DNA of 64,000 nt. Origin: Candidatus Megaera polyxenophila. GTDB lineage: Bacteria > Pseudomonadota > Alphaproteobacteria > Rickettsiales > Rickettsiaceae. The stretch is from positions 65,974 to 129,973 of the forward strand of contig NZ_CP104167.1 in NCBI RefSeq assembly GCF_029982035.1, given 5' to 3'. The notes beneath the pieces are model-generated. The model ran no database searches and was not told where the DNA came from. It saw only the letters and a program-made list of their open reading frames with translations. Both the position numbers and the translations under genes were made by a program. Below, piece after piece: positions 17,438-24,683 of the stretch (positions within the stretch are counted from its first letter, which is position 1; each line of letters opens with the position of its first letter).

Positions 17438-17696
17438 AATTATTGTTTTATTGCATTTAATAATGTATATATTTAATAATACATAAAGTCAATAGTAATT
17501 AAAATAAACTACTTAATAATTAAATAATAAACAAATACATTATTAATTAAATTATTAAAATAAATAATACAACAGTAGTGTAACTAATTAGTTATTAAAC
17601 TTAATAATTATTAATATATAAAAATATGTACATTATATAGTACAACAAAAGTCACCTATTACTGTACTACCACAGTAGAAAACAATAGTAGTACTA

Positions 17697-17745
17697 TTGT
17701 AAGTTTTATAATTAAATGGCGTAAATTTTATATAAATAAATGGCA
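17697..17745. repeat. Left terminal inverted repeat of Tn552-like element
   Basis: TGTAAGTTTTATAATTAAATGGCGTAAATTTTATATAAATAAATGGCAC. Its reverse complement matches 24544..24590 apart from a 2-nt indel. Confidence 0.6.
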
Positions 17746-17788
17746 CATAAGGATATTTGGATAATACTATTTTTATAAATATGAGAAG

Positions 17789-18178
17789 CTAACGAATCAA
17801 TTTAATATTAGCATTATCTATTTGCAGTTCGCCCCATATTTTATCAGCAGTATAAATTGGAATCTGTAATTTCATCCCCAAAGCAATACAAGCGCGATCA
17901 GCTAAAGAAAGGCCTTGAGGTTGAACAAGAGGATGTAGCTTCGCTACTTGTTCAGCTTGTTCTAAGTCAAAAGGCACAATAGTTGTAATAATATCCGTAA
18001 TTAGGGTACGTCCTTCTTCTGGAGAAATATTTGTTCGCTGTAATACGCTTAGAGTTTCCGTAACATTTACAGCAGACATAACAGAAAATTTTAACAATGG
18101 TTTTATGATTTCTGCACCGGTTTCTTCTTGAATAAGGGCTAATAAAGCAGAAGCATCTAGTATGACTTTATTATTCAT
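17789..18178 (-). CDS. vapC: VapC PIN-domain toxin
   Basis: N-terminal Asp (ILDASAL) and PIN acidic residues. Overlaps vapB by 8 nt. Confidence 0.8.
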   Translation of the reverse strand: MNNKVILDASALLALIQEETGAEIIKPLLKFSVMSAVNVTETLSVLQRTNISPEEGRTLITDIITTIVPFDLEQAEQVAKLHPLVQPQGLSLADRACIALGMKLQIPIYTADKIWGELQIDNANIKLIR

Positions 18179-18428
18179 ATTTAGCCTCGTTTCGTCTCAT
18201 AGTTATTAATTCGTCAACAAGCGAAATATTCCGATCAGTGGTTTTTATATAATTCCTTACCTTTTTTTGTAATTTCTGTAAAGTTTGCTCTGCTGTAGTA
18301 AGGTATAATAGATTATCTTCCATATGCAATATAATGTCATCTCCGGTTTCTAGGTGTAGATTTTGACGAAAAGCTGTAGGAATTATTACCCTTCCACCTT
18401 TTCCTAATTTTGTCCTTATAGCTTTCAT
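18171..18428 (-). CDS. vapB: VapB antitoxin (AbrB/SpoVT-like)
   Basis: 85 aa; GGRVIIPTAFRQNL swapped-hairpin motif. Confidence 0.75.
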   Translation of the reverse strand: MKAIRTKLGKGGRVIIPTAFRQNLHLETGDDIILHMEDNLLYLTTAEQTLQKLQKKVRNYIKTTDRNISLVDELITMRRNEAKYE

Positions 18429-18913
18429 ATGACCTTATTATATATTAGTTAATAATATAAAGAATTGTACCATATTATTTAATTTATGTCACTAATATAA
18501 ATTAGTGTATACTAATTTAATATTGTCAAAAACCATAACCTTATTACCTCTTAAAAACCCTCGTTTTAAAGAGATACTTATTGTAGATAAAAAAATTGAA
18601 AATTTTTTGCTAAATTGCTCAATTTTCATCTTAAAACTATCTCTTGAAATAAAGTCTCTTAAAATGTATAGTAGCTAATGAGTTATAAGAAAAAAAATAG
18701 AGAAAATGTTAATAGGATATGCCAGAGTTTCAACACAGGAACAAAACTTAGAATTACAAATAAATGCTCTACAAGCAGCAGGATGTAAAAAAATATTTAC
18801 AGAAAAAGCTTCAGGGGCACAACGTGATCGCCCTGAATTAAAAGCAGCATTAGAATATATGCGTACTAATGAAGATGATACTTTAGTAGTATGGAAACTT
18901 GATAGGTTAGCTA

Positions 18914-21866: not shown

Positions 21867-22725
21867 TGATGACGGTGAAGACCAATTTTTAGTTACCAAA
21901 GAGTATAAACGTTTTAGAGAATTTTGTGAAGCTTGCATTCGTTATAAATATATTGGTTTATGTTATGGGCCGCCAGGTGTCGGTAAGACTTTATCAGCTA
22001 AATATTATAGTAGATGGGGTTTAATAGAAGAATATTCCAGATTGGATTATCAACGTAGTCAGCCAACTAAACCTGTACCTTATGAACTTAAAGAGCATGA
22101 TACAATCTTTTATACTGCAGAAGTTGCAAATAGCCCTTCAAGGATTTTAAGTTCATTAAATGCCTGCGTAAATAAAGTGCAGCAAGTTAGATACGACGCT
22201 AAGTTTTGTCAATCAGTAAAAGAAAAAGAATATCAGGAAAGTGAATACAATCACAAGAGAATAGAAGACTATATTAACCATCTTTCCAACCCTTTTATCA
22301 AGCTATTAATTATTGATGAATCAGATAGGTTAAAATTGACTTCTTTAGAGCAAATCAGAGATTATTATGACCAGAAAGACTGCGGGTTAATCTTGATAGG
22401 AATGCCGGGTATGGAAAAGAAACTATCCAGATATGCCCAATTATACTCTAGAGTGGGCTTTGTACATGAATTTAAGCCGCTATCTAAAGACGAAATGTTA
22501 TTTATTATGAGCAATTATCTTACGAAATTTGGTATTAATATTGACCCAAAAGATTTTACAGACCATGAGACTATAGCTGCTATTATGCAAGCTACAAGGC
22601 ATAATTTCAGATTGCTCAATAGGTTGCTGAAACAAATTGAGCGTATAATGAAAGTTAACATGGTAAATACTATAACAAAGGAAATAGTACTTGCAGCAAG
22701 AGAATGCTTGGTTATTGGAATATAA
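21853..22725 (+). CDS. tniB: TniB/Tn552 p271-like AAA+ ATPase, 290 aa
   Basis: Walker A GPPGVGKT; Walker B LLIIDESDRL; overlaps the tniA end. Confidence 0.75.
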   Translation: MKTIDDDGEDQFLVTKEYKRFREFCEACIRYKYIGLCYGPPGVGKTLSAKYYSRWGLIEEYSRLDYQRSQPTKPVPYELKEHDTIFYTAEVANSPSRILSSLNACVNKVQQVRYDAKFCQSVKEKEYQESEYNHKRIEDYINHLSNPFIKLLIIDESDRLKLTSLEQIRDYYDQKDCGLILIGMPGMEKKLSRYAQLYSRVGFVHEFKPLSKDEMLFIMSNYLTKFGINIDPKDFTDHETIAAIMQATRHNFRLLNRLLKQIERIMKVNMVNTITKEIVLAARECLVIGI

Positions 22726-22982
22726 TGCCAGTCAAGTACTGCCTCCCGCTGATAAATTGAGTGTACAAGTGAACAGTTTATTTTGGTATTACTCGAATAT
22801 TTGAACATTATAAAGCATTGAAAATGAGATTATTTGGTTACGCACGGGTATCATCTTCGCAGCAATCGCTGGAAACGCAAAAACAAGCTATAAAAACTAA
22901 GGGAGTTAGGGAGTCAAGGATATTTTTTGACAAAGCCACCGGCAGTAGTAGTGCCAATAAGGTTGGTATTAATTCATTATTA

Positions 22983-24109
22983 TTAACCCACCAATTAAAT
23001 ACCCGACATAACTATTGCCAAGAAGGAAGGAATTTGTATAATGCAATAATGTCAAAAAGTGAAGATTTTAGGAAATTATCAATAAGCGCACAAGCGTCGA
23101 TGAGAAAGATTGCTCTAAAACTAGTAAAAAGAGGAGAGAGTCAATCGTCGGTAGGTGAATTAATAGGAGTGAGTCGCCAGACAGTAAATGAATGGGTAAG
23201 GAGGGAAAAGAGAGGCGACAAGTACGCAATTAGTGGGAAGTTAAGAGGTAGAAAGATAGGAGAGAAAAGGCTTATAACCGAAGATCAAAGTAAAATAATA
23301 CAAGGGTACGTAAATATCTCTAGACCAGAAGATCACAATATCAAATCAGCATTATGGTCAAGAAAATCAGTTAATGCACTCATCAAAAAACATTGTGGAT
23401 TTTTTCTTCCCCTAAGTACAATAGGCGAATATTTAAGAAGATGGGGGTATACTGCACAAAAGCCAAAGAAGTTAGCATATGAGCAGCAACCCAAAAGGGT
23501 TCAATTTTGGTTAGATGAAGAATATCCGTCAATAGCCAAGCAAGCAGAATATGAAAAGGCAGAAATACATTGGTGCGACGAAGTAGGGATAAAACAAGAG
23601 TGTCAGGTATTACAAAGCTATTCTTTAAAAGGAAAAACCCCTGTTGTGATTCATAAATCGAAGAGATTTAGTATAAACATGATATCCACTGTTACAAATA
23701 ACGGTAAGCTAAGGTTTATGCTGTACGAAGAGACACTAAAAACAAATGTATTTATAGAATTTTTACGGAGGTTGGTAAAATACTCCAAGAAAAAAATCTT
23801 CTTAATCCTAGATAATCTCAAGGTTCATCATAGCAAAAAAGTACAAATATGGACTCGGAAACATAAAGAAAATTTCTTTATTTTTTCTGCCTCCGTATAC
23901 TCCGCAACATAATCCGGATGAATATTTAAACAACGATTTAAAAAGAAATGTAAATAGGAAACATATACCTCTTACAAAATCTGAACTCCAAGGGAATTTA
24001 AAATCTTACCTAAGGACTCTGCAAAATAACCCAGAACATATCAAAAGATTATTTCAGGCGAAAGAAGTAAAATATGCCGCCTAAGTCGGGTATTTAATTG
24101 GTGGGTTAA
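22983..24109 (+). mobile_element. IS630-family element, copy B (1127 bp) with frameshifted transposase
   Basis: Same inverted repeats and TA duplication. Two A are missing at about 23865 relative to the other copies, so the ORF ends at 23912. Confidence 0.85.
23049..24084 (+). pseudogene. IS630 transposase, frameshifted
   Basis: See element copy B. Confidence 0.7.
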
Positions 24110-24543
24110 TAGCTAGAGTAAAAGATGGGGACGTAATTCTGGTCACAAGATTAGATAGGTTGGGAAAGGACACTATAGATATGATAAACCTAATAAACAA
24201 ATTTAACGCATTGAATGTAGGTATCCGTTTTCTTGAGAACAGCATAAGCACTGAAGGCGCTACAGGAAAAATGGTAATTACAATTCTTGCAGCTGTAGCA
24301 GAAGCAGAAAAAAGCAGGCTAGTTGAACGCACTAGTGAAGGTAGAGTAGAGGCAAGGTTCAAAGGCATTACATTTGGTCGTAAGCGCTTTATTAATAGGG
24401 ATATATTGCTAGGCCTAAAGCTTTCTGGGCATGGAGCTACTACAATTGCTAGAGAAATGAATATTAGCCGTGCTGCTATATATAAAATATTAAAAGAAGA
24501 AAACGTTACACCTTTAAGAAAAGATTAAAACATCTAATTTTGG

Positions 24544-24590
24544 CAAAAAATCCGTCATTTATTTATATAAAATTTACGCCATTTAATTAT
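24544..24590. repeat. Right terminal inverted repeat of Tn552-like element
   Basis: GTCATTTATTTATATAAAATTTACGCCATTTAATTATAAAACTTACA. Confidence 0.6.
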
Positions 24591-24683
24591 AAAACTTACA
24601 TACTATTAATATAAAGTATTAGACTTCTTTGTACTATCGTAGTACAATTAAATTTTTTAGACTAAATAGTACGGAAGTAACTT

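Follow-up and report, generated by a model that had tools for sequence, protein, structure and literature searches.

Tn552 carries p480, p271 and bin, is associated with 6-bp repeats and uses res sites (i.e. beside sin/res) as insertion hotspots (PMC3276174). Members of the Tn5053 family insert at the resI-resII and resII positions of such sites (PMC7765201). A transposon related to these systems was examined on a plasmid of Candidatus Megaera polyxenophila, within a stretch of 64,000 nucleotides (contig NZ_CP104167.1, positions 65,974 to 129,973 of the forward strand; hereafter the window) for which a reading made from the letters alone (the sequence-only reading) had proposed a Tn552/Tn5053-like transposon carrying vapBC. 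The element occupies window positions 17698-24600 and is 6.9 kb in length. With a probability of about 0.92, a Tn552-family transposon inserted by DDE transposition 83 bp before a plasmid serine-resolvase gene, within a res-like region, and duplicated TACTAT, as an instance of the targeting of res sites. This kind of element is already known, and the locus represents a new Tn552-family member in Rickettsiales plasmids.

The boundaries were defined with a repeat finder, which returned terminal inverted repeat (IR) arms at 17698-17742 and 24556-24600 that are complementary at 45 of 45 positions with 0 indels. This 45-mer occurs exactly twice in the window as compared to an expectation of 0 from 100 shuffles, a likeness well beyond chance, and is followed by imperfect similarity up to ~48 nt (GGCA on the left, GACG on the right). 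The termini (TGTAAG at the start, CTTACA at the end) had been read correctly in the sequence-only reading, but its left coordinates were displaced by 1 nt and its right ones by 10-12 nt, and the arms of 48 and 46 nt with one 2-nt indel that it described are wrong. The hexamer TACTAT, reported outside both termini, does abut both element ends whilst the seventh base does not match. The left junction reads AGTAG TACTAT followed by the element start TGTAAGTTTTATAATTAAATGGCGTAAATTTTATATAAATAAATG, and the right junction consists of the reverse complement of the left end followed by TACTAT TAATATAAAG. A six-out-of-six match of this type has a chance probability of ~4e-4 at the local base composition. 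Each end contains AAATGR boxes at nt 17 and 41, presumed to be TnpA-binding repeats, and the ends of two relatives (L003 and L032) have boxes at identical positions.

An uninterrupted form of the target was found in metagenome contigs L038-L041, which are collinear with both window flanks and contain the resolvase locus with one TACTAT (upstream sequence ccacagtagaaaacaatagtagTACTATtaatagaaagtattagac, continuing to the ATG). Joining of the window flanks with a single TACTAT gave 99.46% identity to L040 over 739 nt, continuous across the junction. This proves that the insertion arose by transposition, and TACTAT is a true duplication rather than part of a longer repeat. The possibility that the flanks were joined by recombination between copies or by misassembly, with a coincidental TACTAT match, was considered on account of the unmatched flanks of other copies (L010/L011 and L003) and because the parA-side and resolvase-side backbones are not adjacent in plasmid pMegNEIS296. 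Set against these observations are the ~4e-4 chance of the match and the 99.5% identity of L038-L041, which begins at 17653, extends across the resolvase gene and includes a single TACTAT; the empty site excludes coincidence, recombination and misassembly as sources of the target site duplication (TSD), and this account retains practically no credence. Plasmids pMegNEIS296 and pPCS201 had been tried as empty sites; both are approximate, with ~65% identity past the junction, and were superseded by L038-L041.

The transposon lies just upstream of a third resolvase gene external to the element, as previously claimed. A palindrome scan of the target from 17653 to the ATG at 24684 detected dyads with GTAC cores (TACTGTACTACCACAGTA, ATAGTAGTACTAT and TTGTACTATCGTAGTACAA), and three features give the region its res-like designation: it lies directly upstream of a resolvase gene, it contains these dyads and it is 99% conserved in the empty sites. 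The sequence-only reading had described a region of GTACTA-core palindromes. The palindrome TGTACATTATATAGTACA (17627-17644) belongs to the parA-side backbone and is not demonstrably res; its candidacy as crossover site I of the target was ruled out because homology to the empty sites starts only at 17653. Both the target and the palindromes near vapB contain TAATATAAAG, which could be taken to mean that the target is like the res of the element itself. This reading was also ruled out since the vapB-proximal palindromes are missing from the vapBC-less L032 and the conserved blocks lie at 18550-18690. The best structural match of the external resolvase is Gin invertase (E 1e-31), and the protein is not of the Tn3 type. 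Its reading frame, in a detail missed by the sequence-only reading, is shifted near 24881/24882 (24879-24883), where ATGGCC has become ATGCC with one base missing, whilst dozens of homologues in metagenomes (93-99% identical) encode an intact protein of 198 aa. This frameshift may represent a real pseudogene that followed the splitting of res and promoter, or a sequencing error.

Affiliation was examined through the core proteins. Pfam confirmed the proposed 478-aa Mu-like DDE transposase and 290-aa AAA+ ATPase, the genes of which overlap by 14 nt. TnpA is 50% identical to Tn552 p480 over 477 aa (E 4e-157) with conservation of the motifs that align to its DDE catalytic positions (i.e. WQADHT, VDHGSDF and GKIERFF), and TnpB, in which the Walker motifs are likewise conserved, is 45% identical to p271 over 283 aa (E 5e-81), full-length matches in both cases. 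The first internal resolvase, once restored, is 50% identical to Tn552 BinL over 177 aa and 99% identical to the intact protein of metagenome copy L009. A tblastn search of plasmids with the transposase returned full-length matches of 50% identity in Staphylococcus aureus plasmids, and one of these plasmids (NZ_CP047853) has the layout blaZ, blaR1-blaI, recombinase, Mu-type transposase and AAA ATPase. The order of the element, cargo on the opposite strand followed by resolvase, tnpA and tnpB, is the Tn552 order seen in NZ_CP047853. The closest solved structure to TnpA is the TnsB of ShCAST, a type V-K CRISPR-associated transposon (CAST) (E 1.6e-51), placing TnpA within the Mu/Tn7 superfamily as expected, and TnpB shows a weak similarity to ShCAST TnsC.

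On these comparisons, the element belongs to the Tn552 family and not to Tn5053 or IS21. No TniQ gene was present in the element, whose coding space is fully accounted for with 98 bp between tnpB and the second internal resolvase gene, and neither TnsA nor TniQ/TnsD was found beside the TnsB-like and TnsC-like genes; the absence of TniQ, and of room for it, favours Tn552 over Tn5053/Tn402. Of the double label Tn552/Tn5053-like, the first half is upheld by the core identities of 45-50% and the gene order, whilst the second fails for want of TniQ. Membership of the Tn5053/Tn402 family of res hunters (TniA-TniB-TniQ-TniR) would agree with insertion in res regions, the 5-bp repeats of copy L009, a resolvase gene downstream of tnpB in the manner of tniR in Tn5053 and the relationship of TnpA to TnsB proteins of the Tn7 superfamily. 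As a membership claim it is refuted by the missing TniQ, and it is made highly improbable by the best characterized homologues of the three core proteins, all from Tn552 and full length, by the resolvase-tnpA-tnpB order of Tn552, by a downstream resolvase that is of the Tn3 type and lacking in the minimal relative L003, and by the variable orientation in res. An IS21-family insertion sequence (IS) with passengers, encoding an IstA/IstB pair, would similarly present a DDE transposase gene followed by an overlapping gene for an AAA+ ATPase. The score of the IS21 model (NCBIfam NF033546) was far below its cut-off (28.7 bits versus 160), Pfam assigned Mu-transpos_C and AAA_22 with no match to IstB_IS21, and the identity to p480 was 50%; the proteins are not IstA/IstB, and an IS21 origin is refuted.

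Target choice was surveyed across copies using a metagenome scan with the IR pattern together with the contigs of known copies. About 9 of 11 distinct insertion junctions were located in res regions, and seven of these fell within ~21 bp, in or beside accessory site II of a canonical Tn3-type res. The reference was the Tn3 res, in which site I (28 bp), a 22-bp spacer, site II (34 bp), a 5-bp spacer and site III (25 bp) precede the ATG. The targeted sites have a layout of site I (28 bp), 22 bp, site II (34/35 bp) and site III (25/26 bp), as exemplified by L009 with AGTCTACAAATTTATAATATTGTAGACA, 22 bp, then TGTATACTAAAT CGTAAATTGGT ATATAATAGACA, 3 to 4 bp and TAGTCTACTTTTCGATTTAATAAACA, which is the Tn3 layout. 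Its external resolvase is of the Tn3/gamma-delta type (PDB 5cy1, E 2.5e-71). Copies L009, L026, L027 and L028 share one position in the site II spacer (TSD CGTAA, 5 bp, in L009), the L021/L022 junction is 8 nt into the left half of site II, the L012/L023 junction is at its left edge and that of L018/L020 is 4 nt beyond this edge. The flanks of the copies in Tn3-type res are mutually 63-85% identical as compared to 92-97% for the adjoining element ends, indicating that these are independent insertions and not one inherited event. The res type of the window was hit independently once more, in contig L025, at a position 10 nt rightward of the window insertion. These junctions, with the res-like target in the window, uphold the earlier suggestion of res-site hunting, for which the copies provide natural evidence, and the pattern agrees with the Tn552 hotspots (PMC3276174) and the Tn5053 positions (PMC7765201).

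Tn3-type res sites, either complete (sites I-III) or partial, that lack an adjoining resolvase gene and are thus orphans were observed in pMegNEIS296 (L002, ~6735-6870), pPCS201 (L001, ~6070-6170), L027 and L028. Plasmid pPCS201 is without a stretch of ~60 bp just upstream of its orphan res as compared to pMegNEIS296 and L009. A res of identical Tn3 layout was found on the Rickettsia plasmid pRAMAC23.

Several observations weigh against this reading of a res-targeting Tn552-family transposon. The junctions of L014 (8-bp TSD AAATACTT) and L019 are outside recognisable res sites, and a subsite structure could not be defined for the res of the window, which is not of the Tn3 type. Orientation is variable; the end next to tnpB points towards the resolvase gene in six cases (L009, L028, L012 and L021 among these) and away from it in three, the vapC-side end being towards the gene in L026, L027 and L018, such that both orientations occur at one identical position (L009 and L028 versus L026 and L027). 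The duplication measures 5 bp in L009, 6 bp in the window and 8 bp in L014, and no clean duplication is present in L003 or L010/L011. The IRs of 45-48 bp are shorter than the ~116-120 bp of Tn552. Homology to Tn552, Tn7 and Mu is the basis for proposing TnpA binding and cleavage, a replicative mode of transposition and the resolution step. Finally, with both internal resolvase genes broken and the external gene frameshifted, the window copy may be inactive.

The state of the internal resolvase genes was examined by annotation and in silico excision. Both serine recombinase genes proposed earlier are present; each is split by a 1.13-kb element of the IS630 family that had gone unnoticed (Table 1). 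Pfam matched the pieces of resolvase 1 with an N-terminal part from 18706 and a helix-turn-helix part at 20212-20430, and those of resolvase 2 from 22818 and at 24160-24528. Removal of each IS together with one TA copy restored intact resolvases of 197 and 191 aa. Assignment to IS630 rests on a DDE_3 transposase, a score of 196 bits for NCBIfam NF033545 against a cut-off of 100, and terminal IRs. The two insertions together account for 2.26 kb of the 6.9-kb element, are inverted relative to each other and bracket tnpA-tnpB. Both sit in the 9-mer TTAGCTAGA, at non-homologous positions of the two resolvase genes. A burst of this IS is apparent in the window, with full copies at 18914-20042, 22983-24109, 38588-39716 and 56197-57325 and a fragment at 2170-2419; the four full copies and the fragment are 99.8-100% identical and TA flanks all four full copies. 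The insertions are recent, secondary events.

Table 1. Coordinates of the transposon, its insertions and its target in the window.
Feature	Coordinates	Strand	Remarks
Target res-like region, left part	17653..17691		includes palindrome TACTGTACTACCACAGTA (17660-17677); joins right part in empty sites
Left TSD copy TACTAT	17692..17697		right arm of target palindrome ATAGTAGTACTAT (17685-17697); single copy in L038-L041
Left terminal IR	17698..17745	+	perfect to 17742; TGT start; AAATGR boxes at nt 17, 41
vapC, PIN-domain toxin, 129 aa	17789..18178	-	PF01850, E 1.5e-10
vapB, AbrB/MazE-type antitoxin, 85 aa	18171..18428	-	PF04014, TIGR01439
Palindrome cluster by vapB start	18435..18520		palindrome scan; not conserved in vapBC-less L032
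Probable res of BinL-like resolvase	18550..18690	+	blocks cgctcgttttaaag; atcttaaaactatctcttgaaa; tctcttaaaatgta conserved with L003, L032
Resolvase 1, BinL orthologue	18706..20430	+	197 aa restored; pieces 18706-18913, 20045-20430, split by IS copy A
IS630-family copy A	18914..20042	-	1129 bp; TA TSD 18912-13, 20043-44; transposase frame open
tnpA, DDE transposase, 478 aa	20430..21866	+	Pfam rve + Mu-transpos_C
tnpB, AAA+ ATPase, 290 aa	21853..22725	+	Pfam AAA_22; Walker A GPPGVGKT, Walker B LLIIDESD
Resolvase 2, Tn3/gamma-delta type	22824..24528	+	191 aa restored; pieces 22824-22982, 24112-24528, split by IS copy B
IS630-family copy B	22983..24109	+	1127 bp; TA TSD 22981-82, 24110-11; 2-bp deletion frameshifts transposase
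Right terminal IR	24553..24600	-	perfect from 24556
Right TSD copy TACTAT	24601..24606		flanks element end directly
Target res-like region, right part + promoter	24607..24683		includes perfect palindrome TTGTACTATCGTAGTACAA (24629-24647)
External plasmid resolvase	24684..25279	+	198 aa once 1-nt frameshift corrected; its upstream res region is the insertion target

These interruptions bear on whether the window copy still moves. As both resolvase genes are split, the window copy is at best resolution-defective; the ends, tnpA and tnpB are intact but it can no longer resolve its own cointegrates. A stronger view is that this copy is a decaying relic, mobile only passively on the plasmid or as an IS630 composite around tnpA-tnpB. 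The interrupted resolvase genes, the frameshifted neighbouring target resolvase, the plasmid full of active IS (four IS630 copies and a fragment, as above) and the two inverted IS copies around tnpA-tnpB all speak for decay. Conversely, tnpA and tnpB are open, with only 4 residues of 478 and 2 of 290 differing from the IS-free copy in L009, the IRs are perfect at 45/45 positions and the IS insertions are very recent; furthermore, loss of resolvase stops resolution and not strand transfer, and another copy could supply resolvase in trans. A relic is on balance the unlikely description, albeit one with some substance.

The native form of the transposon was deduced from IS-free copies in metagenome contigs L009-L017, which are 97-99% identical and encode vapC, vapB, a 206-aa resolvase, the 478-aa transposase, the 290-aa ATPase and a 191-aa second resolvase, giving a native size of ~4.6 kb (~4.64 kb). 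A more distant relative, L003 (TniA 80% and element DNA 77% identical), is a minimal element of 3,980 bp with perfect 48-bp IRs and a vapBC-like pair, in which the right IR follows tnpB after 2 bp and no second resolvase is present. In L032 (TniA 64%), the left IR directly precedes the res-resolvase-tnpA unit and vapBC is absent. Conservation of the sequence blocks between these relatives and the window (Table 1) makes the segment upstream of resolvase 1 the probable res site of the element itself.

Rearranged copies were also encountered. The left IR and vapCB are joined to sequences other than resolvase 1-tnpA in L021 (10699-12381), L027 (1-1200) and L012 (~1781), and in L021 this left module precedes a transposase of only 29% identity. 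The breakpoint of L012 is at the equivalent of 18620, and L021 and L027 diverge after vapB. As these breakpoints lie in the spacer between vapB and resolvase 1, the arrangements suggest that the element's own res may act as an exchange site or as a target for other res hunters; as to Bin-type resolution or inversion, the breakpoints of L012, L021 and L027 are no more than suggestive. The flanks of L010 are unmatched (left aaatcgtaatt, right cgtaaattgg), as are those of L003 (GCTAAG versus GCTTAT), and an exchange between copies after insertion would account for the flanks of L010/L011 and L003.

Defence genes are situated at or beside the right end of the element in two copies: in L015 (~3980-4988), resolvase 2 stops at codon 39 and is followed by a SMODS gene (of the cyclic-oligonucleotide-based antiphage signalling system, CBASS), and in L012 (5617-6998) a Pycsar pair (PycTM and cyclase) lies just beyond the right end. 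Contig L033 (235-6710; also L034 and L035) carries a RickCE-like gene and a relative whose TniA is 63% identical and which lies between two resolvase genes; this relative is followed by a second pair of rve (547 aa) and AAA+ (319 aa) genes, an arrangement resembling nested or tandem res-hunting elements. Two related IRs face each other 292 bp apart in L029 (1727-2018) with no coding capacity and no matching TSD, and may represent a miniature non-autonomous derivative of the element family.

By analogy with the described systems, a scheme for transposition can be proposed. The native element is arranged as IR, vapC, vapB, res, resolvase 1, tnpA, tnpB, resolvase 2 and IR. TnpA would bind two repeats of ~23 bp in each 45-48-bp end and cut at the terminal TG/CA, and TnpA with the TnpB ATPase would join the ends to the target, TnpB aiding target capture. 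The recognized target would be resolvase-bound res DNA. Insertion is directed at res sites of plasmid resolvases and, in a Tn3-type res, at site II or the spacer immediately to its left. Resolvase 1 would act on the res that lies between its own gene and vapB to resolve the cointegrates. At a later time, a recently expanding IS630-family element split both resolvase genes of the window copy.

The place of resolvase 2 in this scheme is less apparent. This protein, whose Tn3/gamma-delta type had escaped the sequence-only reading, is 63% identical to the external resolvase of L009 and 30% identical to resolvase 1, and its best structural match is PDB 1gdt (E 1e-61). A Tn3-type res was sought inside the element and across the 64-kb window and none was detectable. 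A relic IR or Tn3-type res between tnpB and resolvase 2, considered as a trace of capture of this gene, was dropped as neither was found there; one doubtful TCGA-centred dyad resembling site III was noted. A speculative and rather improbable role is that of a self-supplied target selector rather than a cointegrate resolver, in which resolvase 2 would occupy Tn3-type res sites (including orphans), license insertion by TnpA/TnpB at site II and functionally replace the TniQ of Tn5053. The lack of a detectable res of its own, the absence of the gene from L003 and its being of the same type as most targets, several of which have no resolvase gene beside them, would allow a function in target selection. 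If true, a corollary would be that the carried resolvases and toxin-antitoxin compensate the plasmid for its destroyed multimer-resolution site.

The cargo corresponds to the vapBC pair proposed earlier, with Pfam assigning PIN and AbrB/MazE genes on the minus strand that overlap by 8 nt; the two genes form a VapBC type II toxin-antitoxin pair by sequence. Four conserved acidic residues, presumably the PIN catalytic residues, are readable in VapC, and this cargo is retained in relatives with 77%-identical element DNA. The palindrome cluster by the vapB start is probably the vapBC promoter/operator. An Rfam scan of window positions 16500-26000 gave no match.

The host assignment was assessed from the plasmid backbone. 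In the left 1.7 kb (i.e. the parA operon), identity is 99.8% to pPCS201 of Candidatus Megaera polyxenophila and 97.6% to pMegNEIS296, which comes from a Megaira endosymbiont, and the window also contains TraG-like, RickCE-like and many IS genes; the assignment to the Rickettsiales is therefore correct. The plasmid is saturated with mobile elements. A 1.8-kb repeat is present in five copies of ~99% identity (~9300-11130, 28030-29858, 36680-38499, 39717-41454 and 61483-63301), encodes a 246-aa IS91-like protein (Y2 transposase and zinc-binding domain) and in one case abuts an IS630 copy at 39716/39717. Three copies of an IS200-like element (Y1 transposase) comprise a tandem pair (14517-15114 and 15113-15716) and a single copy (46356-46956), and a gene for a group II intron reverse transcriptase/maturase (2415-3926) lies beside the IS630 fragment.

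Public records were searched for further copies. A 99%-identical transposase from a Ca. Megaera polyxenophila plasmid is labelled 'DDE-type integrase/transposase/recombinase' in GenBank, where proteins of the element are already deposited under generic annotation (WHA07569.1 and WHA07678.1); the novelty is recognition of the element and not its sequence. A megablast search of PLSDB with the whole element detected no copy, the sole match being 48 nt of flank (pPCS201). Among GTDB species representatives, the IR pattern had 0 matches and the TniA peptides matched only Staphylococcus and a Clostridium fragment, indicating that the close subfamily is absent from these representatives. A literature search for Tn552 in the Rickettsiales found no mention of such an element, nor did the Megaira genome papers that were checked contain one, in line with the comment in the sequence-only reading that none was familiar from this order.

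The novel points are modest: the lineage of the host, vapBC as cargo, a Tn3-type resolvase in addition to the BinL-like one and a map of site II targets drawn from natural copies. A family known mainly for the staphylococcal penicillinase transposon reaches plasmids of an obligate intracellular Rickettsiales symbiont, where public records name its genes only as 'DDE-type integrase', 'AAA ATPase' and 'recombinase', and its res-site hunting is conserved across phyla. The near-identical natural copies amount to a nucleotide-resolution target map in or just left of site II; we know of no comparable map for Tn552 itself. These observations raise the mechanistic question of how an element without TniQ senses a resolvase-bound res, for which the extra Tn3-type resolvase offers a testable hypothesis. 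A res-homing transposon with two proteins and 48-bp ends could also become a genetic tool for the Rickettsiales, in which tools are scarce, as Rickettsia plasmids (e.g. pRAMAC23) have the same type of resolvase and res.

Comparison with known systems distinguishes passengers and targets from the transposon proper. The two internal insertions match the IS630 family in DDE_3 transposase, terminal IRs and TA duplication, but are passengers that damage the transposon and not components of it. Homology to the Tn3/gamma-delta proteins is seen for resolvase 2 and for the external resolvases of both L009 and L026 (E 1e-61 to 1e-71), whereas a Tn3-family transposase is absent from the element and the res sites are plasmid-borne targets. 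Tn7-like elements and type V-K CAST share a TnsB-like TnpA, a weakly TnsC-like TnpB and ends with arrays of transposase-binding repeats, but the element lacks TnsA, TniQ/TnsD, a CRISPR module and attachment-site targeting.

Similarities to Tn5053/Tn402 (TniA, TniB, TniQ and TniR) extend to the preference for res regions, short direct repeats, a Mu/Tn7-type transposase with an AAA+ ATPase and a replicative pathway with resolvase. The Megaira element differs in having no TniQ, in proteins that are much closer to those of Tn552 and in its use of both orientations in res, in contrast to the preferred orientation of the Tn5053 family; for Tn5053, the resolvase of the target itself is needed. Differences from Tn552 are, besides IR length, the host (an intracellular symbiont among the Alphaproteobacteria, where Tn552 has a Firmicute), vapBC in place of blaZ-blaR1-blaI, an additional Tn3-type resolvase between tnpB and the right end, and duplications that range from 5 to 8 bp among the Megaira copies. 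The likeness to Tn552 comprises the identities to p480 (50%), p271 (45%) and BinL (50%), an opposite-strand cargo followed by resolvase, tnpA and tnpB without TniQ, TGT termini with a common box layout, a scan placing an AAATGR box at nt 40 of Tn552 and inspection revealing the variant ATATGA at nt 17, a 6-bp duplication, within the 6-7 bp of the family, and insertion in res sites beside plasmid resolvase genes.

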